Assembly (NCBI GenBank): GCA_965230895.1
Contig: OZ246394.1
Coordinates: 377,316 to 441,315, forward strand
DNA length: 64,000 nt
From: an uncultured Gammaproteobacteria bacterium
GTDB lineage: Bacteria; Patescibacteriota; Microgenomatia; Levybacterales; UBA12049
Direction: 5' to 3'
Positions 4,545-53,254 of this stretch are shown here, in pieces. Both the position numbers and the translations under genes were made by a program. The notes beneath the pieces are model-generated. The model was not told the DNA's origin, ran no database searches, and saw only the letters and a list, made by a program, of their open reading frames with translations. Every line of letters begins with the position of its first letter. Within the stretch, counting starts at the first letter, position 1.

Positions 4545-4545
4545 G

Positions 4546-5130: not shown

Positions 5131-5134
5131 GCGA

Positions 5135-30687: not shown

Positions 30688-31308
30688 TTATTTCGTTTCA
30701 ATACTGACAAGTTCTGCTCGAACCATGTGTCTGTAAATATCATTTGGTCCATCACATGTGATCAAAGTCACTGATGGTTTTTCTGTGGGATAAAAAACAT
30801 CAACTTGTGTAGGTTTGATTGTTTTGATAGTGGTTACTTTATATGTGGCCTTGTAATTTTTTCCGTACAAGACGATTTCTTGTCCGACTTTAACATCTTT
30901 AATTGGGAGAAAAGCATTTGCCTGTGCGTGTCCAAAAAGACCGACATTACCATCTTTGGTATTTACCAAACTTGTACCTTCTGCATAGTTCGCTACTGCT
31001 GGTTGTACTTCCCACGTCCCGTTTTTAAGTGGTACTGAAACAACTTTCTTATCCAATTTAATACTCTCGATAACGATTCGTTCTGGTTTAAATGTTTTGT
31101 TCTTTACAGCGTCTTCAGTTGTTTCAGTACCACAATCAGTTGTGCAGGCATTGGTCTGTGTTTGCCACGACAAACCCTGCACCCATTCTGAAATGTTACT
31201 TCCATTGAAGAATTCATTCTTCAAAGAGCCTAACTGTATCAGTGAAGCTAGGACTGTGATTGTTAGTATCACAGCAAACGTATTCAGTTTCATGCGTAAA
31301 ACTTTCAT
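30688..31308 (-). CDS. Sortase (intact catalytic triad)
   Basis: N-terminal TM; His in …GNVGLFGHAQ…, Cys in …TLITCDG… (TLxTC), Arg in …YRHMVRAEL…. Confidence 0.8.
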   Translation of the reverse strand: MKVLRMKLNTFAVILTITVLASLIQLGSLKNEFFNGSNISEWVQGLSWQTQTNACTTDCGTETTEDAVKNKTFKPERIVIESIKLDKKVVSVPLKNGTWEVQPAVANYAEGTSLVNTKDGNVGLFGHAQANAFLPIKDVKVGQEIVLYGKNYKATYKVTTIKTIKPTQVDVFYPTEKPSVTLITCDGPNDIYRHMVRAELVSIETK

Positions 31309-31313
31309 AAACC

Positions 31314-31493
31314 TTATTTGTTGAACATGTAACGACTGATATGTCCTACCAACATAATAAGTAATAATGTATTTACAGCGACAAATCCAACCGCAATAAG
31401 TGGGTGCACTTTGTCAGCAAGCATAAGACCTGCGGCTGATGTAGCTGGTAATGTTGTTGCTGCTCCTACTAATCCTTTTCCATATTCGTTCAT
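31314..31493 (-). CDS. 59-aa mini-protein consisting of a short N-tail plus a complete LPXTG-like sorting signal (MNEYGKGLVGAATTLPATSAAG-TM-ISRYMFNK); not in the ORF track (<60 aa)
   Basis: Translated by hand from the minus strand; paralog of the 61-aa ORF at 42746-42931 with invariant YGKG, LPATSAAG and ISRY; sits between GT2 and sortase. Confidence 0.5.
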   Translation of the reverse strand: MNEYGKGLVGAATTLPATSAAGLMLADKVHPLIAVGFVAVNTLLLIMLVGHISRYMFNK

Positions 31494-31534: not shown

Positions 31535-32833
31535 TTACCTGGTTCCCCAGGCTGTTGAGTAACCAACTCTACGAAACGCAGAGTGGCCAAGCGAAATTAT
31601 ATAAGTAAGTGTCGAAAGGATAGATTTGGTCACGATATTGTAGAAATAAAATAAATATGAGCCAAACAATACCAGACTTAAGAAGTTGCTATAAATAAAT
31701 TCTGGTAATATAGAGAGTTTTATCAACCAATCGTTCGTATCACGATCAGCATACTCACGCATAACTATGATGTTATAAATTGTTGAAATAGCAAAACTAC
31801 CCCATGCCAGGAAAATAAGTACAGGAATTAAGCCTTGTGTTCGTGTATAGCTATCAGCAAACATAAACGACAGACCAACCAATACAAACAAACTTAAGAA
31901 AGAAGCATGGCCGACAAAATCTTGAAAGACTGAAGGAATATTTCTCCAATGCTGAGCAAGGACGTGCAAACCACCGCTTGTCCAACGTGCTCGTTGCTTC
32001 CAAAGTGCTTCTGCAGTTTCTGGTACCTCTGTCCATGCAATTGCTTTTTTAGCAATTTTTACTTCCCAACCTTGTATCTTCAATCGTGCTGTAATGTCAT
32101 AATCTTCAATCAAATGACCTGTACTAAATCCATTAATTGATTCAAGCACTTCCATTCGGAAAGCTGTAAGCATTCCTTGCATGACCAATGGCCCTTTCAA
32201 GAAGCCATTATCTGAGATTTTGGTGATATTAAAGCCATGATACTCGAGTCCTTGGAGACGAGTTACTATGTTTTTATTCTTATTTGTAATTCTGACTTGG
32301 GAGCAAACGGCTCCAATTTTATAACTTGAGAATAATGTGTTTACCATATTTGGTATCGTTTCTTTATTGATGACTACATCATCATCGAAGGTGAATACCG
32401 CATCAGGCTTAATAGCAAGTGATTGGAGATATTCAATTCCATAATTTAACGCACCAGCTTTTAAGGTGTTTTTCGGAGTTCGTAGAGAAACTATCTGAAG
32501 ATTGTTCGCTGCGAGCCAATTAATCTTACTGAGCACAGGTGCTGTATCAACGTTTAAAGGAGTACAATCATCGACTACTACTACAAGTACTTTTGAATGG
32601 TATTTTACGATTGATTCAACGAGTTGTACGGTCATTTCACTCGGACGGAAGGTCGGGATAATGACTGCTACGTTTTTTCTTGAGAAGACTGATCTTGTAT
32701 GTATACTTACTGGCTTTTTCGGCACAAAGAAATGGCCGACCTGTGCGACTGTTTCTATAAGGTTCTGGTTTAATTTAGTCTTACGATTCATACTATGAGT
32801 CGTATTATAACCTATAATAATGTGGATTGTCAA
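31535..32833 (-). CDS. Processive family-2 glycosyltransferase (IcaA/PgaC/NodC/cellulose-synthase-like), membrane-embedded
   Basis: …AVIIPTFRP…, DxD …FTFDDDVV…, QxxRW …WKQRARWTSGGL…; 4-5 C-terminal TM helices. Confidence 0.8.
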   Translation of the reverse strand: MTIHIIIGYNTTHSMNRKTKLNQNLIETVAQVGHFFVPKKPVSIHTRSVFSRKNVAVIIPTFRPSEMTVQLVESIVKYHSKVLVVVVDDCTPLNVDTAPVLSKINWLAANNLQIVSLRTPKNTLKAGALNYGIEYLQSLAIKPDAVFTFDDDVVINKETIPNMVNTLFSSYKIGAVCSQVRITNKNKNIVTRLQGLEYHGFNITKISDNGFLKGPLVMQGMLTAFRMEVLESINGFSTGHLIEDYDITARLKIQGWEVKIAKKAIAWTEVPETAEALWKQRARWTSGGLHVLAQHWRNIPSVFQDFVGHASFLSLFVLVGLSFMFADSYTRTQGLIPVLIFLAWGSFAISTIYNIIVMREYADRDTNDWLIKLSILPEFIYSNFLSLVLFGSYLFYFYNIVTKSILSTLTYIISLGHSAFRRVGYSTAWGTR

Positions 32834-32912: not shown

Positions 32913-35243
32913 TTATTTACTAAGACTTACTGAGTCGATGTACAAGTTAAATGTACTATTTGGTGTTGTGTAGTATTGCAATCTTACTTTATTAACATTT
33001 GCACTTGTTGGAACATATTGGAATGATTGTACTCCAGTTGTTGGACCCGTAACCATACCCTTCCATTGTCCTGAAAGCCAATTTCCTGCTGCATCGTATT
33101 CATCGATGTAGAATCCGAATTCACCTGTTCCTGTAAGAGCACTGATGAATTGTGACCATGTGTATGTTGTAGCAGGTGTTACTGTGATCATGTCACTGAA
33201 TGCATGCGCATAATTTGTGTTAGCTGCGATGTGCAAACTGTTCGCTCCAGCATTCCCCTTTGTTGTTGTATCAACTGAGAAGTCAGATGTATCTCGTGTC
33301 CAGTTAGCTGCGAATCCACTTGTTACTGTTTCGAATCCACCATTTACTACCAAGTTTGTTGCAGGTGTCCCTGTTGGCGCAACTGTTGGAGTTGCACTTG
33401 GTGTTCCTGTAGGAGTACTTGTTGGTGTAACACTAGGCGTACCTGATGGTGTTGCTGTTGGAGTTACACTTGCTGCTGTATTAGTTAATGCATAGTTATC
33501 AACTGTAGCTGTTCCTGTTGAATTAGCTGTAAGGTATGTTTGGACTCGGATTGAGTTAACCAACGTTGATGTTGCTTTGTAAGCTCGTGAGAATGTTGAT
33601 GTAACACCATTTGCTACTGCGCCCAACCATTGACCTGAAATCCAAGTACCTTGTGCATTGTATTCGTCGATGTAGAAGCCAAGTTCGCCTGATGTTAATC
33701 CACCTGTGTTTGCTACTGCACTAAAGTTATATGTAGCTGCTGTATCGATTCCAGAAACAGTTTGGAATAAGTGAGCTGCTGCTGTATTACCTTTTATAGA
33801 TGCTTCACCATTCGCTGCTGTAACGTTTACTGTGTTATCAGTTGTCCAAGGAGTCAAACCATCTGTGAATGATCCATTAACGATAACATTATTCGCTGCT
33901 GGAGTTGGAGTTACACTTGGTGTACCTGATGGTGTTGCTGTTGGTTCAGCACTCGGTGTAGGTGTAACACTTGGTGCACCATCAATGTTGTTCAAGTTAA
34001 CACTATCAATGTATGCTGTTCCTGTAGCTCCACCTGTAAGGTAGGTTTGGACTCGAACTGAGTTCACAAGGTTTGAAGTTGCATTGTAAAGCTTTGTGAA
34101 GAACCCAACTGTACCGTTTGTAACCATACCTAACCATTGTCCTGAGATCCAGTTACCGTTCGCATCATATTCATCGACATAGAATCCGAGTTCACCTGCA
34201 GTCAAACCTGTTGCATTATAGAATGCATCAAGGATGTAACTAGAGTTAAATGAAACATTTGTCAAACCTGAGAATAAGTGAGTAGCTGAAGCAGCACCTG
34301 TCATACTAACTGATTGTGTTGGTGAACCGTAGTTACCATGGTTAGCATTGTCAGCTTTTACTGCTGTTGCATTATCTGTGTTCCATCCATTTGCAAGTCC
34401 TGCTTCAAATCCTGAGTTTTGAAGTACATTTGCTCCAGGGATAGTGATACCTTGCTCTGTTGTAACAACTTGGATTTGTCCTGCGTTAACCTTTGTTTGA
34501 ACATAATTCGCCATTGTTGTAAGGTTTGCTGTTGTTACTGTGTATTCGTAATTAGGGTTCTTTGCAACTGCTGTGTCATGGAAGACAAGAATTAACCATT
34601 GCTTGTTTGCAATTGCTTGATCAACCCATGCTTGTACTTGTGCTGGTGTTGTCGCGTCATTAACATCTTGTACCATCAAGATAGCTCTATTATAAGGTGC
34701 ACTGTTTAATGCATCTCGATCTTGGAAAGCTCGATGTGATTTGTAGTATTTAAGGATTTCTGCAATTGTGTTGTTGTCATATGCTCCAAATGGTGAAGCA
34801 AAATTAGTAACGTTTAATCCATTTGCTTGGAATGCTGTATTTGAAGTTGTTAATTCAGCTTCATTTTGTGTAGCTGTAACTGTAGGCATTTCTACGTGAG
34901 TTCGTGTGTGACCACCAATTTCCCATCCATAAACATCTTGCAATTCTCGTACCTGTGCCCAAGTAATTCCTGGCTGATTATCATCCAAAGTAATTTGGCC
35001 ATCTGGAACTCCTGAAGTTAGGTAAAGAACACCATCGATTCCTCGTGCTTCAAGAATTGGAGCTGCAAGTGTTCGAGTAGATGCGAAACCATCATCAAAT
35101 GTGAAAGAAACTCGTGCCTTATTAAGTTCTGAGAGGTTAGTTATTTTAGCTGCTGATGCTACTGGAGCTTGTGACAAAACAAGAGCCGCCATCAATGCGA
35201 AAGCGGTCAAAGACTTTACTACTTTGTTTACTAAGTTGTTCAT
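32913..35243 (-). CDS. Large secreted surface protein: N-terminal NodB polysaccharide deacetylase + 3 carbohydrate-binding (CenC/CBM4_9-like) β-sandwich modules separated by Pro/Thr linkers
   Basis: Signal peptide; NodB motifs …VSFTFDDGFAS…, …GGHTRTHVEM…; 3 × …GELGFYVDEYDANGNWISGQWLGMVTNG… modules; linkers TPTPSAEPTATPSGTPSVTPTP. Confidence 0.8.
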   Translation of the reverse strand: MNNLVNKVVKSLTAFALMAALVLSQAPVASAAKITNLSELNKARVSFTFDDGFASTRTLAAPILEARGIDGVLYLTSGVPDGQITLDDNQPGITWAQVRELQDVYGWEIGGHTRTHVEMPTVTATQNEAELTTSNTAFQANGLNVTNFASPFGAYDNNTIAEILKYYKSHRAFQDRDALNSAPYNRAILMVQDVNDATTPAQVQAWVDQAIANKQWLILVFHDTAVAKNPNYEYTVTTANLTTMANYVQTKVNAGQIQVVTTEQGITIPGANVLQNSGFEAGLANGWNTDNATAVKADNANHGNYGSPTQSVSMTGAASATHLFSGLTNVSFNSSYILDAFYNATGLTAGELGFYVDEYDANGNWISGQWLGMVTNGTVGFFTKLYNATSNLVNSVRVQTYLTGGATGTAYIDSVNLNNIDGAPSVTPTPSAEPTATPSGTPSVTPTPAANNVIVNGSFTDGLTPWTTDNTVNVTAANGEASIKGNTAAAHLFQTVSGIDTAATYNFSAVANTGGLTSGELGFYIDEYNAQGTWISGQWLGAVANGVTSTFSRAYKATSTLVNSIRVQTYLTANSTGTATVDNYALTNTAASVTPTATPSGTPSVTPTSTPTGTPSATPTVAPTGTPATNLVVNGGFETVTSGFAANWTRDTSDFSVDTTTKGNAGANSLHIAANTNYAHAFSDMITVTPATTYTWSQFISALTGTGEFGFYIDEYDAAGNWLSGQWKGMVTGPTTGVQSFQYVPTSANVNKVRLQYYTTPNSTFNLYIDSVSLSK

Positions 35244-35386: not shown

Positions 35387-38023
35387 TTATTTGTATAGAG
35401 GGTTTTTTAAAAGATAGTCATTTATAATAATTTGTTCCTTTACTATTTTTTCAAAATCTACATCTGAATTTAACGCAAAATCAGCATTTTTGAAGTTTTG
35501 ATTAAAGAAAATTACTGCTTTAATCTTAGGATAGCTTGGTAATGTTACAAGAGCGTCTTTAAACCACTGTTCTTTATCTCCACCTTTACTTGTCGTGGAT
35601 GTTTCTGCAAGCATAATTGGTTTGTTCAATTTATCCAATTCTCCATAGGCTTTACCTATTGTTTGATCAAGAGTAAGCCATTTTGTTTTTGCATTTGAAC
35701 TTCCCCAATTAAATCCACTGAACCCTACCCAATCAACATACTCATCGCCTGGGTAATATGAAAGCATTGATGATGTACTTCCATGACTGTCTGTATTATT
35801 AGGAGCCCAGACCCAGACAACATTGGTTGCACCTTCTTCTTCAAAGATGTTATGAACATGTCTCCACATCGCGATATATGTTTTAGGGTCATTTTTGCTA
35901 CCCCACGGATACCAATCTCCATTCATCTCATGCGCAAATCGTAAGAAAACAGGCTGTTTAAAATCAGCTGCCTCTTTTGCAAATTTTCTTATGTACTCAT
36001 CATGGTCACCTTCAATGATTGATTGGGGAGAATAAATATTCTTCGCGGAAGGATCAGTACTAAATTTTTTAGATTCCCATGGTTCCCAAGTAATTATTGG
36101 AACAAGATTATTTTCAGAAAGTTTTTGTACATATACTTTGTCAAATGTATTGGTTGATGACCAATCCTGATAGTACATACTTAAAGATGTTTTTTCCTCA
36201 GGTATTGTAGTTAACTTAAAGTTGTTTGAATGAGCATTAAGAGAGGGGTGATAATATCCATAGTATACACCACTTGCCGGAACCAATAACTCTTTTTGAG
36301 GAGTTGGTGAAATTTGCTCGCTTAAGGTTTTCAAACTGGCAGATGTTTGAAATTCTGGGATAGTGGTGACATAATAACCAATTAATCCCATGACTACTAC
36401 TGCCGTTAAACCGCGTGTCAATAAAGAATAACCAAAGGTGTTACTCATGATTCGTGAAGTACTATTTTTGATTGCGAATACTATGTTTTCGAAAACTGAA
36501 AAGTCGTAATTTTCTCTAACGATAAGGTAAAATCCTAAACTCAATATAATGACATCAAAAGCAGCCCAAAAGAAATTAAGAAGAGCACCTACATTACCAA
36601 CGGCATGTTGATACCCGTACAATAACCCACATGCTAATAAAATAGCGACAATCCCTTGAAGTTTATAAACAGCGAAAGGATTTTCTTTCTCATATTTCTT
36701 AATAGTTACAATAAAGGAAAGTTCTTTTTTAAACACACTCGAAAGGAATGCGCTTACAAATATTGGAAACGAAGCAATATCTAGTACAAGACTTTTGATA
36801 GGATTTCGGAAAAGTGTAGCATAAAGGATACTGTTATACAGTAACAACGGACCATAAACAAATGCGAGATACTGCCATGTATTTGCATTTACAAGGGCAA
36901 GACCAAAGAATAAATATGGTAATGGAGCAAGCATTAGGATCAAATCACGAACACCGATCAAATAATATGATGCAGATAACAAATAATGAAACTTTTGTCT
37001 TATTGTTAAAGGACCAAATACTATTTGTTTTAGGTAATGAAATGAAACATCAAAACTTCCTTTTGCCCAACGTTGTTGTTGACTAAAGTATTGTTTCAAT
37101 GAAGAAGGAGCAATACCTTCAGCGAGGACTTCAGGAATAAATACACCTTTACTGCCTCTTAAATGAAGCTCCAACGAAGTTGCATAGTCTTCAGTAATAA
37201 ACTTAGTATCCATTCCACCAATGCTATCTAATGCGCTTCTTCGAATCGCAAAATTTGTACCGCATAAGAAAAGTGCATTATCATGTCCTTTAGAGTCACA
37301 TATGTGGTCAAAGAAGAAGATTTGATGCGCTGCAGAAGCTTTTGCAACCCATGTTTTTTCATTTTTGTATCTTTGTGGACTTTGCGCAAAATCAATTGAA
37401 GGATTATTAAATGGTTTAGCTATCTCAGTTAGGAAATGCTCTTTTACAGCAAAATCGGCATCAAGTACAATATCTAATGTATTAAAAGCATCTTGTGCTG
37501 GAATTTCTCGCAGACCATTATTGATATTACCTGCCTTAAATCCTCCACCTACAGAACGTGCAATATGGATTACATCCAGCTCTTCTGCTAAGGCTTGAAT
37601 GTCTCTCCAATTGTCTTTATTTGCAGCTTTACCGTCATTTAATACGATAACTTTAGGTTGTACATTTGGGTTAGTAGTACTAATGTAATAATCTCTAGCT
37701 TTCTTTGCTGCCAAAATAGTTTCTCTTATTACTTCTTCTGGCTCTCCGCAGACGCAAATAAACATATTCATTTCTACATTCTTATTCTCATTTACCGCAG
37801 TGTAACGTCTGTATTTTCGAGGCCAAAGAGAATAAAACATTCCATAGAGATGAAATATTGTATGGAGTTCAGCAATGAAAAGAATAATACTAAACACCAT
37901 CAAGGCTGGGGAGAAATTAATAAAAGTAATTCTATAGAAGAAATAGACAGTAAGAAGCATCGCTCCGCTCAGAAGAAGGGAACGCAATCCTATACTTTTT
38001 AAGAACGTCTTAAAATCATTCAT
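35387..38023 (-). CDS. Cellulose-synthase-like processive GT2 (BcsA-like) fused to a C-terminal clan GH-A (GH26-like) glycoside hydrolase domain
   Basis: GT2: …VLDADF…, …FITEDYATS… (TED), …QQQRWAKGS… (QxxRW), multiple TM; C-terminal: …LRFAHEMNGDWYPWG…, …YYPGDEYVDWVGFSGFN…, …IMLAETS…. Confidence 0.8.
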   Translation of the reverse strand: MNDFKTFLKSIGLRSLLLSGAMLLTVYFFYRITFINFSPALMVFSIILFIAELHTIFHLYGMFYSLWPRKYRRYTAVNENKNVEMNMFICVCGEPEEVIRETILAAKKARDYYISTTNPNVQPKVIVLNDGKAANKDNWRDIQALAEELDVIHIARSVGGGFKAGNINNGLREIPAQDAFNTLDIVLDADFAVKEHFLTEIAKPFNNPSIDFAQSPQRYKNEKTWVAKASAAHQIFFFDHICDSKGHDNALFLCGTNFAIRRSALDSIGGMDTKFITEDYATSLELHLRGSKGVFIPEVLAEGIAPSSLKQYFSQQQRWAKGSFDVSFHYLKQIVFGPLTIRQKFHYLLSASYYLIGVRDLILMLAPLPYLFFGLALVNANTWQYLAFVYGPLLLYNSILYATLFRNPIKSLVLDIASFPIFVSAFLSSVFKKELSFIVTIKKYEKENPFAVYKLQGIVAILLACGLLYGYQHAVGNVGALLNFFWAAFDVIILSLGFYLIVRENYDFSVFENIVFAIKNSTSRIMSNTFGYSLLTRGLTAVVVMGLIGYYVTTIPEFQTSASLKTLSEQISPTPQKELLVPASGVYYGYYHPSLNAHSNNFKLTTIPEEKTSLSMYYQDWSSTNTFDKVYVQKLSENNLVPIITWEPWESKKFSTDPSAKNIYSPQSIIEGDHDEYIRKFAKEAADFKQPVFLRFAHEMNGDWYPWGSKNDPKTYIAMWRHVHNIFEEEGATNVVWVWAPNNTDSHGSTSSMLSYYPGDEYVDWVGFSGFNWGSSNAKTKWLTLDQTIGKAYGELDKLNKPIMLAETSTTSKGGDKEQWFKDALVTLPSYPKIKAVIFFNQNFKNADFALNSDVDFEKIVKEQIIINDYLLKNPLYK

Positions 38024-38068: not shown

Positions 38069-39151
38069 CTATAAAGAGGTTTTAAATGCGTTGAGGCTTG
38101 ATGAGGATGAATCTATTCTCCAATCGGCTTCTTTTATTAAATTAAACCAAATAACCTCATTTACCCTTGGAAAAGCGGTATGAATCGAATAGAACATATC
38201 ATTTACCCAAGCTTCTTTATTGCCCCCTTGTTCGGAAGAAGCAATCTCGGCAATTATTATGGGCTTATCATATTGAGCAGCAATATATTGATAGGTTGGC
38301 TGAAAGAGTGCACTAAAAGACCTCCAGCCCCCATAACTACGTGTTGTTCCGAAGTTAAAGCCATCAATACCTATAACATCAACTACATCGCTTCCTGGAT
38401 AATATCCATTTATTTCACTAGGATTTTCTGTTATATTCACGCACCACATCCATTGCACATTCGTAACTCCTTCTTGCTGGAAAACTGTATGTATATGACG
38501 GTAAGCTGCAATATATTCTTCAGGCCTCTTTCCCCACGGATACCAATCACCATTCATTTCATGCCCAAAGCGCAATGTGACAGGACTGCCGTATTGCTTT
38601 ATGGACTGGGCAAATTGTCTTATATATGTATCATGCGTTCCTTGGGAAATTTCTTTAAGGTAATCAACAGCTTGAGATGAGCCTTGTTCAGGGTTCCAGG
38701 GCTCCCAGGCCAGTTGTATTTTTTTCCTGCTTTGTTTACTGTATGTAAGTTGAGTAAGGTTAAAACCTTTATTATTTTGATTCCCAAATTGTTTAAAAAT
38801 AGAAAGTGTTGTTATATTTGTATCTAATTGTTTTTCTAAAGAAGTAACTGTATTTTGGTTATTTGCGTAGTCATCAACTACAACACCAAATAGTAGTGTA
38901 TTATTTTTCGGAACTACTGCTTGTATTGTGGGAGTCGGAGTCACAACTGTAATAGGTTTTGGTTTTGCAGTAGGAGTTGGTGTAATCTCTTGAAATCGAG
39001 TTGCTGTAGTTTTTTGACTGGCAGCAAAGGCTGGTTGTGTTGTTTTAGATTGTGATTTAAAAAAGAATGCAGTGAGCAAGGTACTACTTAAGACGATGAG
39101 AAGGAGCGTTATCATTGTTATATTTTTCTTAGAGAACTTAGTAAATTTCAT
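38069..39151 (-). CDS. Membrane-anchored clan GH-A (GH26-like) glycoside hydrolase, paralog of the C-terminal domain of the upstream fusion
   Basis: N-terminal TM; …LRFGHEMNGDWYPWG…, …YYPGSDVVDVIGIDGFN…, …IIIAEIAS…. Confidence 0.7.
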   Translation of the reverse strand: MKFTKFSKKNITMITLLLIVLSSTLLTAFFFKSQSKTTQPAFAASQKTTATRFQEITPTPTAKPKPITVVTPTPTIQAVVPKNNTLLFGVVVDDYANNQNTVTSLEKQLDTNITTLSIFKQFGNQNNKGFNLTQLTYSKQSRKKIQLAWEPWNPEQGSSQAVDYLKEISQGTHDTYIRQFAQSIKQYGSPVTLRFGHEMNGDWYPWGKRPEEYIAAYRHIHTVFQQEGVTNVQWMWCVNITENPSEINGYYPGSDVVDVIGIDGFNFGTTRSYGGWRSFSALFQPTYQYIAAQYDKPIIIAEIASSEQGGNKEAWVNDMFYSIHTAFPRVNEVIWFNLIKEADWRIDSSSSSLNAFKTSL

Positions 39152-39260: not shown

Positions 39261-42035
39261 TTAGTTAGCTGATAGACTAACAGAGTCGATATAGATAGGG
39301 AATGTACTGTTTGGTGTTTTGTAATACTGAAGTCGTACACTTTTAACTGTTGCACTCGTAGGAGTATACGAGAAAGTTTTTGTTCCTGTTGATGCTCCAT
39401 TAACCATACCTTTCCATTGTCCTGAGACCCAAGTACCTGCTGCATCATATTCATCGATATAGAATCCGAATTCACCTGTTCCTGCAAGCGCCATTATGTA
39501 TTGTGTCCATGTATATGTTTTTGTTGAATCAACTGAAACACTAGAACTGAATGCGTGAGCGTAAGCTGTATTTGCTGGAATGAACAGACTGTTCGCTCCA
39601 TTGTTTCCCTTTGATGTAGTATCAATTGTTGTAACATCTCCTGTGTCATGAGTCCAATTTGATGCAAATCCACCTGCAACTGTTTCAAAACTACCGTTTG
39701 GAATTAAGTTAGTTACTACAGGTGTTGTAGTTGGTGTAGGCGTAACAGTACTTGTTGGTGTCACAGTTGGTGTTGGTGAAACTGTACCTGTAGGTGCTGC
39801 TGTGTTTGTCATACTATAGTTGTCTACAAATGCTGTCCCGTTAGAGTTTGCAGCCATGTATGTTTGAATGCCAATTCTTGATACAAGTGCACTAGTAGCT
39901 TTATATGTTTTTTCAATGCTTGTTACTGCACCATTTACAACTGATCCCAACCATTGACCAGAAATCCATGTTCCATTTATGTCATATTCATCGATATAGA
40001 AGCCAAGCTCCCCTGATGTAACTGCTGTTGCATCAGCTGTAGCTTTAAGCAAGTATGTAGCTGTTGTATCAATAGCGTTTAGGTTGTAGAACAAGTGAGA
40101 TGCTGTTGTTGTTCCTGTAAATTTAACTGCATTTTGGCCACCATTTGCATCAGCGACAACGTTTGCAGGTTTATCAGTAGTCCAACCATTTGAGATCCCT
40201 TGATCAAATGAACCATTTGTAATTACGTTCGTTGCTGCAGGTGTCGGAGTTGCAACCGCTGGACCAGTTAAACTATAGTTGTCAACATATGCTGTTCCGT
40301 TAGAGTTTGCAGCCATGTATGTTTGAATACCAATTCTCGCAACGAGATTACTTGTAGCTTTATAAGCTTTTTGGAAAGTTGACGTTACACCGTTAGATAC
40401 ATTACCAAGCCACTGTCCTGATATCCAAGTACCTGCTGCATTGTATTCATCAATATAAAAACCAAGTTCTCCACTAGTAAGACCATTTGCGTTTACCGTT
40501 GAACTAAGAAGGTATGTAGCTGTTGTATCAATAGCGTTTAGGTTGTAGAACAAGTGAGATGCTGTTGTTGTTCCTGTAAATTTAACTGCATTTTGGCCAC
40601 CATTTGCATCAGCGACAACGTTTGCAGGTTTATCAGTAGTCCAACCATTTGAGATCCCTTGATCAAATGAACCATTTGTAATTACGTTCGTTGCTGCAGG
40701 TGTTGGCGTAGGTGTACCACTTACACTAGCTGTAGGAGTTGGAGTTACACTTGTTGTTGGCGCAGGTGTACCATCCAAGTTGTATACTTGAACACTATCA
40801 ACATATGCTGTACCTGTTGCACCCGCTGTAAGGTATGTCTGTACTCGGATAGTATTTACCAATTCAGAAGTTGCGTTATAAAGCTTTGTGAAGAATCCAA
40901 TTGTACCATTTGTAACCATACCCAACCATTGTCCTGAGGTCCAGTTACCATTTGCATCATATTCATCGACGTAGAATCCGAGTTCACCTGATGTTAAGCC
41001 AAGCGAATTAACGAAAGCGTCCAATACATAACTTGAATTGTATGATACTTGTACATTTCCTGAGAATAAATGTCCTTCAGTTGCAGTTCCAGTCAAGTTA
41101 ATAGATTGTACTGGTGAACCGTAATTACCATTATTTCCATTGTCAGCAGCTACACCAGCAGCATTATCTGTTGTCCAACCGTCAGCGAGACCATTTTCAA
41201 ATCCTGAGTTTTGCAAGATGTTCACTCCTGGGATTGTAATTCCCTGTTCAGTTGTAACGACTTGGATTTGTCCTGCATTAACCTTTGTTTGAACATAACT
41301 CGCCATTGTTGTAAGGTTTGCTGTTGTTACTGTATATTCATAATTTGGATTTTTCTTTGTTGCTGTGTCATGGAACACAAGGATCAACCATCGCTTTTCA
41401 GTGATTGCTTGATCAACCCATGCTTGGACTTGTGCTGATGTTGTCGCGTCATTAACGTCTTGTACCATTAATATATCTTTATGAAGTGGGTTACTATTTA
41501 ATGCATCTCGATCTGCAAAACCTCTGTGAGACTTATACAATTTCAAAATTTCAGTTAATGTCATGGTATCGTATGCACCAAACGGTGAAGCAAAGTTAGT
41601 AACGTTTAATCCATTTGCTTTAAATGCTGCGTTTGAATTTGCAAGTTCTGCTACGTTTTGTTCTCGTGTAATTGTAGGCATTTCAGCATGGTCTACTGTG
41701 TGACCACCGATTTCCCAACCATAAACGTTTTGGAGTTCTCGTACTTGGTCCCAAGTAATTCCTGGTTGGTTATCATCTAGCGTAGCTGTACCATCTGGAA
41801 CACCAGATGTGAGGTAGAGAACACCATCAATACCATGTGCTTCAAGAATTGGAGCTGCGAGTGTTCGAGTTGATGCAAATCCATCGTCAAATGTGAAGGA
41901 AACTCGTGCACGATCAAGATCTGAGATACTATTTAATCGAGCTGCTTGAGCAATTGGTGCTTGCGCCAAGAAGAGGACCGCACTCAAAACGATTGCGGTT
42001 AATGCTCGTACTATTTTATTAGTTAATGTATTCAT
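39261..42035 (-). CDS. Large secreted surface protein (paralog of 32913-35243): NodB deacetylase + 4 CBM-like modules; contains a 202-bp perfect intragenic direct repeat
   Basis: N-terminal ~200 aa nearly identical to the paralog (…RVSFTFDDGFASTRTLAAPILEA…); modules with …GELGFYIDEY…SGQWLG…; identical DNA at 40053-40254 and 40512-40713. Confidence 0.8.
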   Translation of the reverse strand: MNTLTNKIVRALTAIVLSAVLFLAQAPIAQAARLNSISDLDRARVSFTFDDGFASTRTLAAPILEAHGIDGVLYLTSGVPDGTATLDDNQPGITWDQVRELQNVYGWEIGGHTVDHAEMPTITREQNVAELANSNAAFKANGLNVTNFASPFGAYDTMTLTEILKLYKSHRGFADRDALNSNPLHKDILMVQDVNDATTSAQVQAWVDQAITEKRWLILVFHDTATKKNPNYEYTVTTANLTTMASYVQTKVNAGQIQVVTTEQGITIPGVNILQNSGFENGLADGWTTDNAAGVAADNGNNGNYGSPVQSINLTGTATEGHLFSGNVQVSYNSSYVLDAFVNSLGLTSGELGFYVDEYDANGNWTSGQWLGMVTNGTIGFFTKLYNATSELVNTIRVQTYLTAGATGTAYVDSVQVYNLDGTPAPTTSVTPTPTASVSGTPTPTPAATNVITNGSFDQGISNGWTTDKPANVVADANGGQNAVKFTGTTTASHLFYNLNAIDTTATYLLSSTVNANGLTSGELGFYIDEYNAAGTWISGQWLGNVSNGVTSTFQKAYKATSNLVARIGIQTYMAANSNGTAYVDNYSLTGPAVATPTPAATNVITNGSFDQGISNGWTTDKPANVVADANGGQNAVKFTGTTTASHLFYNLNAIDTTATYLLKATADATAVTSGELGFYIDEYDINGTWISGQWLGSVVNGAVTSIEKTYKATSALVSRIGIQTYMAANSNGTAFVDNYSMTNTAAPTGTVSPTPTVTPTSTVTPTPTTTPVVTNLIPNGSFETVAGGFASNWTHDTGDVTTIDTTSKGNNGANSLFIPANTAYAHAFSSSVSVDSTKTYTWTQYIMALAGTGEFGFYIDEYDAAGTWVSGQWKGMVNGASTGTKTFSYTPTSATVKSVRLQYYKTPNSTFPIYIDSVSLSAN

Positions 42036-42141: not shown

Positions 42142-42732
42142 TTATTTTTCGTTAGAAAGTTCTATCTTTACTAATGCAGCTTTTACAATATATTGCTTGT
42201 TCGAGAACGTTTCATCTGATGTAACAAGAGTCAAAATAGGTGTTTTTGTTGGTGCAAAAACATTTGTATCTGTTGTTTTTGCCAATCTTGAAGAAGTTAC
42301 TTTATATGTTGCTTTTTGACCGTTACCATAGACTACAATTTCAGTATTATTATTAAGTTGTTGGATTCGAGTAAATCCATCAAGTCTATCGTTTGCAAAA
42401 AGTCCAACGTTTCCTTCTTTATCATTGACCAAGCTTGTGCCTTCAGCAAAGTTGGCAACATGTGGAAGAAGCTCCCAAGTACCATCTCTTAATGGTACTG
42501 AAAATACTGGAAGGTCAATTTCTACAGAAGAGATAACGATTCGTTCAGGAGTGAAAGCTGATAATGTCTTAACAGGAGTAACTGTTGGTGTCTTTGATGC
42601 AAATGGCGTTGCTGTCAATTCTTGAGAATTAGCTACAGTAGATGACACACCAGTACCAAGCGCACCAAGTTGCGCGATACTAGCAAAAGCCGCCAAAACA
42701 AAAATAGTTGTATAAACACTTACTTTCTTCAT
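42142..42732 (-). CDS. Sortase-fold paralog with all three catalytic residues substituted (degenerate / pseudo-sortase)
   Basis: Aligns along its length with the sortase at 30688-31308, but GLFGHAQ→GLFANDR (His→Asn), TLITCDG→TLVTSDE (Cys→Ser), VRAEL→VKAAL (Arg→Lys). Confidence 0.7.
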   Translation of the reverse strand: MKKVSVYTTIFVLAAFASIAQLGALGTGVSSTVANSQELTATPFASKTPTVTPVKTLSAFTPERIVISSVEIDLPVFSVPLRDGTWELLPHVANFAEGTSLVNDKEGNVGLFANDRLDGFTRIQQLNNNTEIVVYGNGQKATYKVTSSRLAKTTDTNVFAPTKTPILTLVTSDETFSNKQYIVKAALVKIELSNEK

Positions 42733-42745
42733 ATCGTTAATTGAC

Positions 42746-42931
42746 TTATTTAGCTCTATTAACTAAATATCGACTGATTTGACCTGCTAAGATAACAAGC
42801 CATACGACATTAAGTACTATAAAACCTGCAAGTACAATCGGATTACTTAAGTCAGCAAAGAATGCTCCTGCTGCTGAAGTAGCCGGTAATACCGCTGCGC
42901 CTAATACTTGTCCTTTTCCGTAATCTGTCAT
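42746..42931 (-). CDS. 61-aa mini-protein, paralog of 31314-31493 (MTDYGKGQVLGAAVLPATSAAG-TM-ISRYLVNRAK)
   Basis: Same architecture and invariant LPATSAAG; same position between GT2 and sortase homolog. Confidence 0.5.
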   Translation of the reverse strand: MTDYGKGQVLGAAVLPATSAAGAFFADLSNPIVLAGFIVLNVVWLVILAGQISRYLVNRAK

Positions 42932-42946: not shown

Positions 42947-44209
42947 TTAGTTTTTTGTACCCCACTTTGTTGAGAATCCTGCCTTATTGAAGGCTGCGAG
43001 TCCCCAGTTATATGGAGCATTGAATAATGATATTCTTGTTGCAATTGGCTTAAAGACTTTGTTGTATACGATAAATAAGTATGATCCGAGCAAGATAAGA
43101 CTTAACAAGTTACTGTAAATAAGTTCTGGAAGAACGGTTAACTTCATTAACCAATCTCTCTTATCACTATCTTCATATAAAGATAATGAAACGACATTAA
43201 AGATGAATGCTACAAGGAAGTTGAATAATGAAAGAGCGAATAATATAAGTACTGTTTCTGGATTACTTGTTTCAGTTCGTACAAAAAAGAATGACAACAC
43301 AATCAATCCAAAAAGACTGATGAACAACATATGTCCGATAAGATCTTGGTAAATAACATCAAATTTCTTCCAGAATTCACCCAACACATGGAGTCCACCA
43401 CTTACCCATCGAACACGCTGTTTCCAGAGTGCTTCGATTGATTCAGGAACTGTTGTCCATGCAATTGCTTTTTGAGCAATCTTTACATTCCAACCTTCAC
43501 TCTTCAATCGTGCTGTAATATCATAGTCTTCAATCAAGTGGCCTTTTGTAAAACCATTAATTTCTTTAACTGCTGCTGTTCGAAAAGCTGTTAACATGCC
43601 ATGCATTACAAGTGGTCCTTTTAAGAAACCATTGTCAGCAATCTTTGTGATATTAAAGTTATGGTATTCAAGTGCTTGCAATCGAGTTAAGAAGTTTTTG
43701 TTCTTATTAATAACTCGTACTTCAGAACAGACGGCACCGACTGTATCGTCAGAATACAATGTCGCAACCATTTGTGGAACTGTGTTCTTAGTAATGATCA
43801 CATCATCATCGAAAGTGAAGATAACATCTGGAACATGCTTGAGACTCAAGACATATTCAATACCATGATTTAAGGCCGCTGCTTTTAACTCATTTTTAGG
43901 AGTTCGCAAATAAGCCATATTATTGTGTTCGTTTGCAAGAGCTTTGATTTTGTTAAGTGTCTTAAGATTTTTTTCAGTTTCTGGAGTACAATCATCAATG
44001 ACAACAAGAATTGCTTCAGGATGCCAATCAAGAATAGACTTAATTAGGTTATAGGTCATATCAGTTGGAGTATGAGTTGGTACCAGAATTGCAGGAAGTT
44101 TACTCTGAATAAGCTTCTCACTCATCAAGATTATTTCCTTTTTAGGAGCGAAAAAGTTCACGGATTCTTCCGCGATTCGTTTGAATGTATTTGTATTTTT
44201 TCTCTTCAT
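42947..44209 (-). CDS. Processive family-2 glycosyltransferase, paralog of 31535-32833
   Basis: …AILVVIDDCTPE…, …FTFDDDVI…, QxxRW …WKQRVRWVSGGL…; C-terminal TM helices. Confidence 0.8.
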   Translation of the reverse strand: MKRKNTNTFKRIAEESVNFFAPKKEIILMSEKLIQSKLPAILVPTHTPTDMTYNLIKSILDWHPEAILVVIDDCTPETEKNLKTLNKIKALANEHNNMAYLRTPKNELKAAALNHGIEYVLSLKHVPDVIFTFDDDVIITKNTVPQMVATLYSDDTVGAVCSEVRVINKNKNFLTRLQALEYHNFNITKIADNGFLKGPLVMHGMLTAFRTAAVKEINGFTKGHLIEDYDITARLKSEGWNVKIAQKAIAWTTVPESIEALWKQRVRWVSGGLHVLGEFWKKFDVIYQDLIGHMLFISLFGLIVLSFFFVRTETSNPETVLILFALSLFNFLVAFIFNVVSLSLYEDSDKRDWLMKLTVLPELIYSNLLSLILLGSYLFIVYNKVFKPIATRISLFNAPYNWGLAAFNKAGFSTKWGTKN

Positions 44210-44266
44210 GAAGTGTGATTATATAGGACGTCTTATAAGATGTCAATAGGGTAATATTATGGGGTA

Positions 44267-50614: not shown

Positions 50615-53254
50615 TTACTTTTTCGTCTGTAAGTTTTTAGATGTCCAGAGGTTTGGTAAATCGTTATTGTAGAGTGCAGTTCCGAACCAAGCCCAATTCT
50701 GTGTATAATAATTCTTAGAATCTTCCCAATAACTTCCATCCTTATCTTCGTACAACTTGTTCAATACTTGCTTGTCATATACTTCTTTTGCAGCAGCTTT
50801 ATCAGTAACAACAAAGTTTGCCAAATTTGACGCATATGCACTTGCTGATTCATAGTCTTCCCATGGTTTTCCATCATGTGTATACGCTACACTGATTCGT
50901 TGATTGTTTTTCCATTCCTTGCGGATGAAATCATTCTTTGAGAGATATGCCTGCGCACGAGGTTCTTTGAACCATTGATAATCAAGAGCAATTCTCCAAG
51001 GAGTTCTAAATGCATCAAAGCCATATTCTGTTGAGTCCAAACCTTTTTCTGGAGATTTAATAATTCTTCCATTCGCATCAACTGCACACCAATTTGGAGC
51101 GAGCCCTGCAGATGATTCTTTATCCAGATCGCTATCAGTACATGCATTCAGCACTTCATACGATGTGTCTACGAGATCCATCCAATCATGTTTTGTATCA
51201 ATTTCTGCAAAGATTCGGTAACTACTTGGTGCAAGATATGATGGATTGATGATCGCTGCATTCTTTGCCTTAGCCCAGTTACCTGCGACGAGATATGGCT
51301 TACCTCTGACAACTTTCACTTCGTTGTCCCAAATTGCTTGCATAATCGTTCGACCATCGATAATATAGCCGGGATTGTTCCATCGCTTTCCAGCAAAAGC
51401 GAGTGCCAGAGCGATATCTTCATCTGCATCAGTTGCTGAACTTCGGTCAACCACACCCATGGTTCCATCGGCTTTCTTTCCCCACTTCCATGCAATAAGA
51501 TTGTTCTCTTGTTGCATGTTACGTTTGGTGAATCCCCATGCTTTATCAAAGGTTTGCTTATCGTTCATCCAGACTGCTCGAAGCATTGTGTATGATTGCG
51601 CTTCGGATGTTGTTAAGTTATTCGCTGGATCAACAGCATTTCCATCTTTCTTGATAAATGTACTTTTATATGTTTCCCATGTCGAGACAAGAATTCTTCG
51701 AGAGTTCTTTACAGCCCAGATCTGAACATACCAACCATCTCCTGCGAAACTCGTAATCGGATTGGACTGAGCCAAAGCACTTCCGGTCATTGGGATTTCA
51801 CCTGTACCCAAGTCACCACCGATAAGCGGTGTAAACAAGACATAATCAATATTATTGTAGTCATTCTTCAAAATCTTTTCTTTAATGTCTTTATCACCAT
51901 CAACTTTCCAATAATATTCTGCATTTGCGAAATTGTTGTTATTTCGATAGTTCAAATCGAGGTATGCATAATTATCAATTGCATAAAAAGCATTTGGATT
52001 TTGTCGACTCAAGATCCAATTGACCGCTTCGATCTGCGCATTTGTTTCATTTGAGGTATAGATATTAAATTTCCCTGAGCGGACATTGTTTGAATAATTG
52101 AAGACTAAGACACCCATATAAATGATAAATGCCATAATTGGGAAAATTGCATAAATCTGTAATGGCCAGAACCTCATCCGGGCAAAGAAGTGATAGATTC
52201 TATAAAGAACGTATGACGTGGTGAGTGCTACTAACGGAACCAAGGGAATGATATAGAATTCAAGCACCAATCCTCCACGAAGTAAGAAAGCCCAGTAAGA
52301 AACAGCAAGTCCAGCAATAATTCGTGCCGCAACACTTCGAATAGCCAAGAGGAGCGTGATAAGAGTACTGATTGCCCCAACAATCATGAATGATGGATCA
52401 TCATTTTTCCAGTTCCCTGTCATCTCCCAGAAACTCGAATCAGGATTAAGAATACTGACATTTCCCCGTCCCCCTTGGAATTGCAATGTTCCCAAAAGAC
52501 TTACGTGCTCATGTTGGCCACCCAGAAGCGTTCCTGCCGGAAAGAATTCACCTTTAAACATACTGAAGATGAAATAAAGCGAGATAACGACACCTGCGAC
52601 AGCAATCCATTTGATTGTACCGAATATTCTATTTATTTTATGCAATTGTGAATAAACCAGTGCGGCCATGAACGGCAGGAAGAAAATCGCACTTTCTTTA
52701 CTAAGGACAGAAATACCAAATGTCACCGCACTGGCGATAATCCAGCGAAGTCGTTGCTTACTAAAGAGTACAAAAGCAACTGACAAGAGCAGCCAAAATA
52801 CCATGATATTGTCCAGAAGTACACGTCGCTGGAAATAAATTGCCAAAGGTGAAAGTGAAAACATCAGCACAGCAAACGAACCAACCATCTTAGAATTTGT
52901 GATCTTCTTTCCTATGAAATACAGCAGCAATGCTGATCCAATGTGTAGCAAGAGCATGAGTACGCGGCCTGAGTTAATGGCAAACCCAAAAGTAAATAAG
53001 CCACCTGTAAGCTTTATCCATAGTGCAATAAGCATCCAGCCAACTGGAGCATGATCGTACCAATAGGTATACGGAGCTAATTTGCCATCATTGATGATCG
53101 CCCAGGCTTGTGCCATATATGTTCCCTCATCAGATTCATAATATGGATAACCAAGCATGTTATAACCATGAGCAATTGCCGCAATCGCCAGCAAACCAAA
53201 TACAAGAACGTATTCCATCTTATTACTGTTAAAAAATTCTTTAATCTTTTTCAT
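50615..53254 (-). CDS. GT-C-fold membrane glycosyltransferase (PMT/ArnT-like, polyprenyl-phosphate-sugar dependent) fused to a C-terminal GH8 (BcsZ-like endoglucanase) domain
   Basis: N-terminal ~12 TM with …YYESDEGTY… first-loop acidic motif; C-terminal GH8 signature …SSATDADEDIALALAFAGKRW…. Confidence 0.8.
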   Translation of the reverse strand: MKKIKEFFNSNKMEYVLVFGLLAIAAIAHGYNMLGYPYYESDEGTYMAQAWAIINDGKLAPYTYWYDHAPVGWMLIALWIKLTGGLFTFGFAINSGRVLMLLLHIGSALLLYFIGKKITNSKMVGSFAVLMFSLSPLAIYFQRRVLLDNIMVFWLLLSVAFVLFSKQRLRWIIASAVTFGISVLSKESAIFFLPFMAALVYSQLHKINRIFGTIKWIAVAGVVISLYFIFSMFKGEFFPAGTLLGGQHEHVSLLGTLQFQGGRGNVSILNPDSSFWEMTGNWKNDDPSFMIVGAISTLITLLLAIRSVAARIIAGLAVSYWAFLLRGGLVLEFYIIPLVPLVALTTSYVLYRIYHFFARMRFWPLQIYAIFPIMAFIIYMGVLVFNYSNNVRSGKFNIYTSNETNAQIEAVNWILSRQNPNAFYAIDNYAYLDLNYRNNNNFANAEYYWKVDGDKDIKEKILKNDYNNIDYVLFTPLIGGDLGTGEIPMTGSALAQSNPITSFAGDGWYVQIWAVKNSRRILVSTWETYKSTFIKKDGNAVDPANNLTTSEAQSYTMLRAVWMNDKQTFDKAWGFTKRNMQQENNLIAWKWGKKADGTMGVVDRSSATDADEDIALALAFAGKRWNNPGYIIDGRTIMQAIWDNEVKVVRGKPYLVAGNWAKAKNAAIINPSYLAPSSYRIFAEIDTKHDWMDLVDTSYEVLNACTDSDLDKESSAGLAPNWCAVDANGRIIKSPEKGLDSTEYGFDAFRTPWRIALDYQWFKEPRAQAYLSKNDFIRKEWKNNQRISVAYTHDGKPWEDYESASAYASNLANFVVTDKAAAKEVYDKQVLNKLYEDKDGSYWEDSKNYYTQNWAWFGTALYNNDLPNLWTSKNLQTKK

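Follow-up and report, generated by a model that had tools for sequence, protein, structure and literature searches.

Mini-proteins resembling bare sorting signals, encoded between a processive glycosyltransferase and a sortase-fold protein in a putative candidate phyla radiation bacterium

What could a protein that consists of little more than a sorting signal be doing between a polysaccharide synthase and a sortase? The question is raised by a stretch of 64,000 nucleotides, referred to here as the window (assembly GCA_965230895.1, contig OZ246394.1, positions 377,316 to 441,315). On its minus strand, the window carries two copies of a cassette in which a gene of about 60 codons follows the gene of a processive family 2 glycosyltransferase (GT2) and precedes that of a sortase-domain protein. 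A first-pass annotation, which relied on the letters and their open reading frames, had offered three explanations for these mini-proteins: a minimal sortase substrate, a docking or regulatory peptide of the sortase, or a small synthase subunit of the IcaD/PgaD type that has acquired a sortase-recognition motif. The favoured answer, to which a probability of about one half is given, combines the first with the third. The mini-protein would be a single-pass partner of the synthase, with a short outside tail that is cut and transferred by a dedicated sortase.

Both open reading frames are present as first described, on the minus strand. Mini-protein 1 (31314..31493) comprises 59 amino acids and translates as MNEYGKGLVGAATTLPATSAAGLMLADKVHPLIAVGFVAVNTLLLIMLVGHISRYMFNK. 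A 14-residue N-terminal tail is followed by LPATS at residues 15–19, the spacer AAGLMLADKVHP, a transmembrane (TM) helix at about residues 30–56, and the tail SRYMFNK. Mini-protein 2 (42746..42931), with 61 amino acids, follows the same plan, having the N-tail MTDYGKGQVLGAAV, LPATS, a spacer, a TM helix and an ISRYLVNRAK tail, and it scores 99.7 bits against the hidden Markov model of the family described below. The two proteins are 48% identical and have YGKG, LPATSAAG and ISRY in common. The earlier hand translation was exact for the second copy and contained one error in the first, which reads LLLIML and not LLLLML. The architecture read from the letters also holds: an LPxT motif, about 12 residues, one confident TM helix, a cationic tail and no signal peptide. 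In front of LPxT stand 14–17 residues only, and a passenger domain is absent as well.

That such short frames are genes is not self-evident. They might be chance open frames in intergenic spacers, a view to which their shortness, their lack of database annotation and their omission by gene callers in some loci lend some colour. Each mini-protein, though, is preceded by a strong Shine-Dalgarno site, which is AAGGAGGTGA-N7-ATG for the first and GAAAGGAG for the second, the latter reading GAAAGGAGAAAGCT-ATG with its spacing to the start. Measured against the orthologues of a related genome (L004), the ratio of non-synonymous to synonymous changes (pN/pS) is 0.09 for mini-protein 1 and 0.16 for mini-protein 2; the neighbouring enzymes range from 0.12 to 0.24 in the same comparison, and the mini-proteins are read as the more strongly constrained. 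The Shine-Dalgarno sites and these ratios identify the mini-proteins as translated genes and not as chance frames. Both are real coding genes under purifying selection. With 42 homologous clusters, conserved length and motifs, and a fixed synteny added, the view that they are no genes at all is effectively refuted.

The homologous clusters were obtained by a profile search (HMMER, E ≤ 1e-3) of 1.84 billion representative proteins. All but one of the 42 are 55–86 amino acids long, the outlier being a protein of 293 amino acids (P0049) to which we return below; a word-indexed search gave 13 clusters, all of 57–63 amino acids. No Pfam or NCBIfam model matched either mini-protein, in Pfam even at E ≤ 10, which excludes them as members of any LPXTG-anchor model in these collections. 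The same result removes the suggested homology to IcaD/PgaD; where those have two TM helices, one is predicted here with confidence, behind an N-segment of borderline hydrophobicity and low pLDDT. The 43 aligned members have a mean column identity of 34%. After starts called too far upstream have been trimmed, LPx[T/A] lies at residue 14–19 from the N-terminus in 41 of the 43. LPATS occurs in 14 members, LPATT in 8, LPATA in 6, LPVTA in 3, and LPATG and LPAAS in 2 each; 6 members have single variants, and 2 have no motif. At least 90% conservation is reached by the L, P and T of the motif and likewise by the Arg of SRY and the Asn that follows it. LPATS and LPATA have been established as substrates of class A sortases by crystal structure and activity assay (PMC9520033; PDB 7s4o).

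The tail ahead of the motif is also conserved, as DYG[KR]G.VLG.AT with its Tyr and Thr, and this extends to the motif-less members. Its Lys is another matter. The Lys of YGKG had been proposed as a pilin-like nucleophile, and the stretch before LPxT is free of Lys in 24 of the 41 members that carry the motif, which rules out polymerisation of this kind. When the window and about 182 kb of non-redundant related neighbourhoods were scanned with a relaxed sorting-signal pattern, no candidates other than the mini-proteins were found, and this marks mini-protein and sortase as a dedicated pair. The family is rare and restricted to the ultra-small bacteria of the candidate phyla radiation (CPR). It is also systematically under-annotated: gene callers skipped the mini-protein in L018 (5769-6001), and in L019 (5783-5947) they placed a spurious 54-amino-acid frame on the opposite strand instead.

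The surroundings of the mini-protein are as constant as its motif. A metagenome scan with the sortase alignment gave five loci and a scan of a genome collection three. Thirteen motif-bearing loci from soil, rhizosphere and groundwater were informative for synteny (both cassettes of the window, both of L004, and L001, L008, L014, L015, L018, L019, L020, L021 and a JGI contig). In every one of them, a sortase of one and the same clade is encoded directly downstream of the mini-protein, so that the triplet of GT2, mini-protein and sortase noticed in the window is kept among its relatives. A GT2 precedes the mini-protein wherever the flank is available, and a carbohydrate esterase family 4 (CE4) deacetylase gene is adjacent. 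The genes for mini-protein and sortase often overlap by 4 nt, and in several loci stop and start codons overlap both there and between sortase and CE4. A fifth gene, encoding about 310–365 amino acids with weak matches to GH2_C, GH5 and DUF4434 TIM barrels, usually comes after CE4. Locus L017 was left out of the count; its cassette (3800-5343) is a degraded copy, in which the GT2 is broken into several frames and a frameshifted mini-protein (…VLPATTAGEIFF…) is followed by a divergent sortase; either the locus has become a pseudogene or the contig is of low quality.

The two members without a motif, P0028 and P0029, separate the two halves of the protein. Their LPxT has been lost by a short replacement, and the DY.KG.LG start, the TM helix and HISRYL.N are kept. 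Both directly follow an orthologous GT2, which scores 425–462 bits against the window GT2 and thus falls in the range of the full-cassette loci. Neither a sortase nor a CE4 gene lies downstream of them; what comes next is an unrelated, cytoplasmic-looking protein in one case and a convergent gene in the other. An adjacent sortase is found in 13 of 13 motif-bearing loci versus 0 of 2 motif-less ones (Fisher p ~0.01). As the link to the GT2 is kept after the loss of motif and sortase, the TM/SRYxxN half of the mini-protein appears to be tied in function to the synthase, and the LPxT tail to the sortase.

The sortase partners fall into active and inactive forms. The sortase of cassette 1 (30688..31308, minus strand; 206 amino acids; PF04203, 9.6e-19) has an N-terminal anchor and the residues His127, Cys185 (in TLITC) and Arg193. 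Its counterpart in cassette 2 (42142..42732, minus strand; 196 amino acids; PF04203, 1.4e-13) has an N-terminal membrane anchor too, and carries Asn, Ser and Gln in place of His, Cys and Arg. With 67.8 and 51.1 bits, both exceed the PF04203 cut-off of 26.6. The reading of the window as two GT2/mini-protein/sortase sets is thus correct as to the gene families on either side of each mini-protein, but the second "sortase" lacks all three catalytic residues. Sortase 1 passes the general model TIGR01076 marginally (40.1 versus 39.35 bits). None of the class-specific NCBIfam sortase models (A–F, GN) was passed, the best scores being at most 36 bits against cut-offs of 135–166, and the best solved relatives of sortase 1 are class A sortases in the PDB (E ~1e-7). 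In an alignment of 63 clade members, 60 have both the catalytic His and the catalytic Cys, and Arg193 is at least 90% conserved. The three exceptions are a protein with Tyr for His, the cassette 2 protein of the window and its L004 orthologue (L004 2542-3126), the last two both with Asn/Ser/Gln. The cassette 2 protein has a pN/pS of 0.18 against that orthologue and is best described as a predicted pseudo-sortase, maintained beside an intact LPATSAAG.

A further loss is seen in P0049 (L022 379-1260), in which a mini-protein with LPASG runs in frame into a sortase domain with Asp/Ala/Gln as its triad. The locus order is GT2 C-terminus, fusion, CE4. At the junction there is no stop codon, nor any start codon from which a separate sortase could be translated. 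P0049 is known from one contig of 2.3 kb, in which a homopolymer frameshift at the A-run by the junction could conceivably have produced the fusion as an artefact. P0049 probably represents a second, independent loss of catalysis with the motif retained. The sortase folds of cassette 2 and P0049 can only bind, which suggests that recognition or scaffolding is part of the function. As a separate observation, many active clade sortases have a Cys-x2-3-Cys pair (ACTTDCG, CANC, CVDC) in the stalk between anchor and catalytic domain. It is present in the cassette 1 sortase of the window (30688-31308, residues ~50-60), in L001 and in L008, and not in the dead cassette 2 paralogue; the pair could be a disulfide or a metal site.

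The synthase itself is encoded at 31535..32791 in cassette 1 (minus strand; 418 amino acids from ATG 32791) and at 42947..44209 in cassette 2 (minus strand; 420 amino acids). The alignment of both shows the motifs of processive GT2s, namely DDC/DDD, EDYD and KQRARW/KQRVRW, followed by hydrophobic segments. The cassette 2 enzyme, with DDD, EDYD and QRVRW, a C-terminal TM bundle and a conserved C-terminal G[YF]S..WGT[RK], matches the Pfam models Glyco_tranf_2_3, Glyco_trans_2_3 and Chitin_synth_2. The label "IcaA/PgaC-like" given earlier is a loose one: the processive motifs are there, and the resemblance is weak, at 119.7 bits against an equivalog cut-off of 422.3 for the PgaC/IcaA model TIGR03937. 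A match to TIGR03111 is weak as well (E=1e-10), and the closest solved structures to the cassette 1 GT2 are remote, namely chitin synthase 7wjn (E=1.7e-5) and hyaluronan synthase 8smm. The GT2s have no N-terminal TM helix. An N-acetylated hexosamine polymer is suggested as the product by the CE4 partner alone.

GT2, mini-protein and sortase gene form a tricistronic unit behind one promoter in both cassettes. The promoter-like site of cassette 1 (32804..32833, minus strand) reads TTGACA-18-TATAAT, matches in 12/12 positions and lies 12 nt ahead of ATG 32791. That of cassette 2 (44218..44246, minus strand) reads TTGACA-17-TATAAT, also 12/12, with 8 nt from the -10 element to the GT2 ATG. At distances of 8 and 12 nt, the GT2 messages should be leaderless or nearly so. 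A TTG start at 32833 overlaps the cassette 1 promoter-like site, which makes ATG 32791 the most likely true start. Ahead of the mini-protein and sortase genes of both cassettes, no promoter-like match of at least 10/12 was found. In cassette 1, the transcription order on the minus strand is CE4 with a terminator (a hairpin and T-run after the CE4 gene, ahead of the GT2 unit), promoter-like site, GT2, mini-protein 1 and sortase; in cassette 2, it is promoter-like site, GT2, mini-protein 2, sortase-fold protein, CE4 and GH26-like protein. Between the cassettes, the GT2s are 52% identical, the mini-proteins 48%, the sortase-domain proteins 42% and the CE4 enzymes 63%. This range of 42–63% implies an old duplication of which both copies have been retained.

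For a sortase to reach the motif, the N-terminus of the mini-protein would have to lie outside. On the family alignment, AlphaFold2 (AF2) gives one confident helix at residues 30–56 with a predicted local distance difference test score (pLDDT) of 83–91, and values of 54–66 for the first 29 residues. The best 19-residue Kyte-Doolittle window of the TM segment reaches 2.43. Net charge is +2.9 over the last nine residues and about 0 over the N-tail. The coat protein of phage Pf3 is inserted in just this way, as a leaderless single span with a short, near-uncharged N-tail outside and a basic C-tail inside. In P0049, the loop between the mini-protein TM helix and the sortase anchor is strongly basic (SRYVTNKKSNSAKRILNKKQK), which puts the C-terminus of the mini-protein in the cytoplasm and lets the stretch ahead of its TM helix share a side of the membrane with the sortase domain. 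The AF2 model of P0049 consists of a good sortase barrel and two TM helices, and Foldseek aligns it to S. agalactiae SrtA (3rcc) with a target-normalised TM-score of 0.81. An N-out/C-in topology is favoured by these predictions.

From these elements, a mechanism can be sketched. The mini-protein would be an integral part of a module made up of a GT2 synthase, the mini-protein, a membrane-anchored sortase, a secreted CE4 and usually a glycoside hydrolase. It would insert N-out/C-in without a leader, and its C-terminal two-thirds (Pro, TM helix, SRYxxN, basic tail) would work with the GT2. The part played by its TM helix may be analogous, and not homologous, to that of IcaD/PgaD, or to that of the N-terminal TM helix which the GT2 is without. 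The outside tail of about 17 residues, ending in LPxT[S/T/A/G], co-varies with the co-transcribed sortase and would be its recognition site. Sortase 1, with its intact His-Cys-Arg, would most likely cut between Thr and Ser (candidate substrate peptide GAATTLPATSAAGL) and pass the N-peptide MNEYGKGLVGAATTLPAT to an amine acceptor at the surface, for which a cross-bridge of the cell wall and an amino group of the de-N-acetylated polymer are candidates. The synthase would keep the trimmed TM stub, and in this way its state or output would become coupled to the wall. The outcome may be a wall-linked peptide, a peptide-tagged polymer, or simply a synthase that is matured or licensed once the tail is gone. 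As to cassette 2, the pseudo-sortase could bind the tail at most, or sortase 1 could process mini-protein 2 in trans.

Several observations weigh against this picture of a synthase partner with a cleavable tail. The losses in P0028 and P0029 probably go back to a single evolutionary event, and their contigs measure 1.8–2.3 kb, so that a sortase encoded elsewhere is possible. Cleavage severs the tail from its anchor, and the benefit of a wall-linked 17-mer is not apparent. The mini-proteins have no sequence homology to IcaD/PgaD. Two independent lineages retain the motif next to a catalytically dead sortase, which argues that binding without turnover may be enough. With 1.51 in its best 19-residue Kyte-Doolittle window, the N-segment is moderately hydrophobic, and a helical hairpin with a cytoplasmic N-terminus and LPxT buried in the membrane is a possible alternative topology. 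Finally, AF2 left the LPAS tail of P0049 undocked in the sortase domain; with a pLDDT below 50 for the tail, the model speaks neither for docking nor against it.

The dead sortases raise the alternative that LPxT is a non-catalytic docking or regulatory tail, that is, a pseudo-substrate handle which recruits a sortase-fold protein to the synthase complex or regulates it. The handle might keep the sortase where the polymer leaves, or the sortase might bind up a tail that would otherwise gate the channel. This is the docking peptide of the first-pass annotation, and for cassette 2 it gains support from a dead sortase under purifying selection. The pairing of an intact LPATSAAG with an Asn/Ser/Gln sortase here and in L004 (pN/pS 0.18), the independent P0049 lineage with LPASG fused to an Asp/Ala/Gln domain, which points in the same direction, and the conservation of the N-tail DYG[KR]G.VLG.AT even in motif-less members all agree with it. 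As an account of the whole family it is nevertheless rather unlikely, since 60 of 63 sortases keep His and Cys, and Arg193 is kept at 90% or above, which is hard to explain if catalysis is irrelevant. The active paralogue in the window genome could, moreover, act in trans on the cassette 2 tail, and AF2 gave no confident docking of the tail. A more elaborate idea takes the N-peptide as a covalent link between polymer and envelope. Either a glycan would be built on the tail or attached to it and the sortase would anchor the glycopeptide to peptidoglycan, or the sortase would transfer the peptide onto free glucosamine amines made by CE4. The linkage of GT2, mini-protein, sortase and CE4 is invariable, with overlapping stop and start codons in several loci. 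The translation signal of the mini-protein is far stronger than that of the leaderless GT2, which fits a consumable substrate, and the conserved Tyr and Thr of the N-tail fit this idea too. Sortases accept non-peptide primary amines, amino-sugars included, in vitro, and Actinomyces GspA is a sortase substrate that carries glycans. Yet the transferred N-peptide is unanchored and cannot by itself tether a polymer to the membrane; we know of no synthase-type GT2 that needs a protein primer; and the reaction is impossible for the dead-sortase cassettes. A covalent link of this sort is improbable, and the same may be said of its more specific form, in which the 17-residue N-peptide is a consumable adaptor that couples synthase-made exopolysaccharide to the envelope via the sortase.

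The two remaining alternatives each give up one half of the protein. If the mini-protein were purely a subunit of the IcaD/PgaD type, its LPxT-like sequence would be structural and unrelated to sortase. Its place directly after the GT2 corresponds to the gene order of ica (PMC7112194), and motif-less members do persist beside a GT2. Such a reading is very unlikely in view of a motif that fits the sortase consensus exactly, is the best-conserved element of the family and is lost exactly where the sortase is missing, the sortase being adjacent in all 13 loci that have it; homology to IcaD/PgaD is missing as well. Conversely, the mini-protein could be a stand-alone minimal substrate that yields a wall-linked or released peptide of 17–18 residues, such as a signal or a surface tag, and is merely co-located with polysaccharide genes. 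In favour of such a substrate are the completeness of the sorting signal, the dedicated sortase and the conservation of the N-peptide. The chances of this view are slim, because the adjacency of GT2 and mini-protein survives the loss of sortase and motif, the GT2-mini-sortase unit stands behind one promoter in both cassettes, and the cytoplasmic SRYxxN is conserved, which a disposable anchor would not need. The notions of a minimal substrate and of a synthase partner with a sortase motif, which the first-pass annotation had listed as separate options, are not exclusive. Both gain from the co-variation of motif and adjacent sortase, and it is their combination, a synthase partner whose tail would serve a sortase, that is preferred here.

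The remaining genes of the cassettes and the region between them also concern glycans. The CE4 polysaccharide deacetylases are secreted proteins of 776 amino acids in cassette 1 (32913..35243, minus strand, upstream of the GT2) and 924 amino acids in cassette 2 (39261..42035, minus strand). The latter has a signal peptide, Pro/Thr linkers and repeated NTTRR-F1/CBM-like domains. In the CE4s, three to five tandem copies of a domain of about 150 residues (weakly NTTRR-F1/CBM_4_9-like) are joined by Pro/Thr-rich linkers; the 924-amino-acid enzyme has an extra repeat, visible as exact DNA repeats at 40060 and 40519. A GH26-like glycoside hydrolase of 360 amino acids (38069..39151, minus strand; PF02156, 4e-14) sits where other loci have the fifth gene, and no similarity to the fifth gene of L001 was detected. 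Inserted between the two cassettes is a BcsA-like GT2 fused to a GH26 domain (35387..38023, minus strand; 878 amino acids), which is missing at this place in L004 and is thus probably not a core part. More generally, the window is a dense island of glycan biosynthesis (35387-38023, 38069-39151, 50615-53254, 53259-55484 and 55879-60015), which holds, besides the BcsA-like GT2-GH26 and the GH26-like protein, a PMT-like membrane domain fused to GH8, a double GT2, and a protein of 1378 amino acids with GT2, GT2 and GT4 domains. Farther away, at 5135-6232 (minus strand), lies a C39-like (PA2778-family) cysteine peptidase domain with TPR, weakly like the XrtA/PEP-CTERM protein PrsT, for which no relation to the cassette was seen. 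Rfam and tRNA scans of the window gave no matches.

The host is, to judge from its genes, a Levybacteria-like CPR bacterium. The window has a GC content of about 38%. Its TypA is 90% identical to a protein of "Candidatus Levyibacteriota bacterium" and 75–81% identical to proteins of "Patescibacteria group" and "Candidatus Levybacteria". Among the sortases of the clade, one bears the name "sortase [Patescibacteria group bacterium]", and L001 comes from a groundwater metagenome whose contig tag "01um" is read as the 0.1 µm size fraction. The titles "uncultured Gammaproteobacteria bacterium" of the metagenome-assembled genomes at L007, L008 and L009 (GCA_964507055.1, GCA_964364105.1 and others) look like placeholder taxonomy; the first of these, which also holds L004, is closely related to the genome of the window. 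The envelopes of CPR bacteria are poorly understood, and proteins with sortase motifs are reported to be common on their surface (PMC5220378). An attached, symbiotic lifestyle has been described for cultivated CPR bacteria (PMC11623550). If the proposed function is true, it would give a handle on the envelope of CPR/Patescibacteria that is relevant to such a lifestyle.

Its interest would not be confined to this group. The accepted task of sortases is the display or polymerisation of full-size proteins. To our knowledge, the PNAG (poly-N-acetylglucosamine), cellulose and Pel synthase systems have no covalent route to a Gram-positive-type wall. A sortase that acts on a synthase partner would have a new job, namely maturation or regulation of the synthase, or coupling of polymer and wall through a peptide. 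Should the N-peptide turn out to be an adaptor, this would be the first natural sortase reaction for the attachment or decoration of a polysaccharide and not for protein display. Pseudo-sortases that are under selection beside an intact motif would be a ready system for studying non-catalytic recognition of peptides by sortases, and the compact natural pair of enzyme and LPAT[S/T/A] substrate could serve ligation chemistry. The family is also a reminder that genes of about 60 codons are missed or mis-called by gene finders.

A search of the literature returned no paper that describes the arrangement of GT2, mini-protein and sortase, in agreement with the first impression that it matched no described system. 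Its parts can nevertheless be compared with known ones. With classical LPXTG proteins and sortase A, it shares the tripartite signal, in which LPxT and a small residue precede a hydrophobic span with a cationic tail, and the membrane-anchored Cys transpeptidase with His-Cys-Arg. Here, however, the Sec signal peptide and the passenger are missing and the motif is reached after 14–17 residues, P1' is Ser, Thr or Ala instead of Gly, and a spacer of about 12 residues leads to the TM helix. The sortase fits no class-specific model, and the pair lies inside a CPR polysaccharide-synthase operon. Dedicated pairs of one sortase and one substrate do exist, as in SrtB-IsdC and in the proteobacterial class GN sortases with their single target, where the sortase is likewise encoded beside its sole substrate. 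Those substrates are large proteins, whereas the mini-protein is essentially the sorting signal alone; the class GN model TIGR03784 is matched weakly. The Pf3 coat protein is similar in its short uncharged N-tail and basic C-tail, which makes the topology feasible, and it is unrelated in sequence and function.

On the side of the synthase, IcaAD(B) and PgaCD(B) also consist of a processive GT2 followed by a small integral-membrane protein, with a CE4 in the module. PgaD and IcaD are non-homologous small membrane proteins, each of which is required by its GT2 synthase (PMC7112194). The mini-proteins differ from both in lacking any similarity to them and in having probably one TM helix, the only one predicted with confidence, instead of two. 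The GT2 reaches 120 of 422 bits in the PgaC/IcaA model, and a sortase gene and its motif have been added here. A tie between protein sorting and exopolysaccharide loci is known from PEP-CTERM/exosortase (EpsH) systems, whose targets end in a motif, a TM segment and a basic tail (PMC1569441). The likeness to these systems, including the XrtG-associated GT2 (TIGR03111), is a conceptual one: exosortases are polytopic and of an unrelated fold, their targets are full-size secreted proteins, and their host lineages differ from the one considered here. The arrangement thus resembles a pair of sortase and sorting signal as well as a pair of GT2 and small subunit, yet it misses defining features of each. 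It is best seen as a sortase with a minimal candidate substrate of its own, the two being embedded in the synthase-dependent exopolysaccharide module of CPR bacteria, where pseudo-sortases have arisen more than once.

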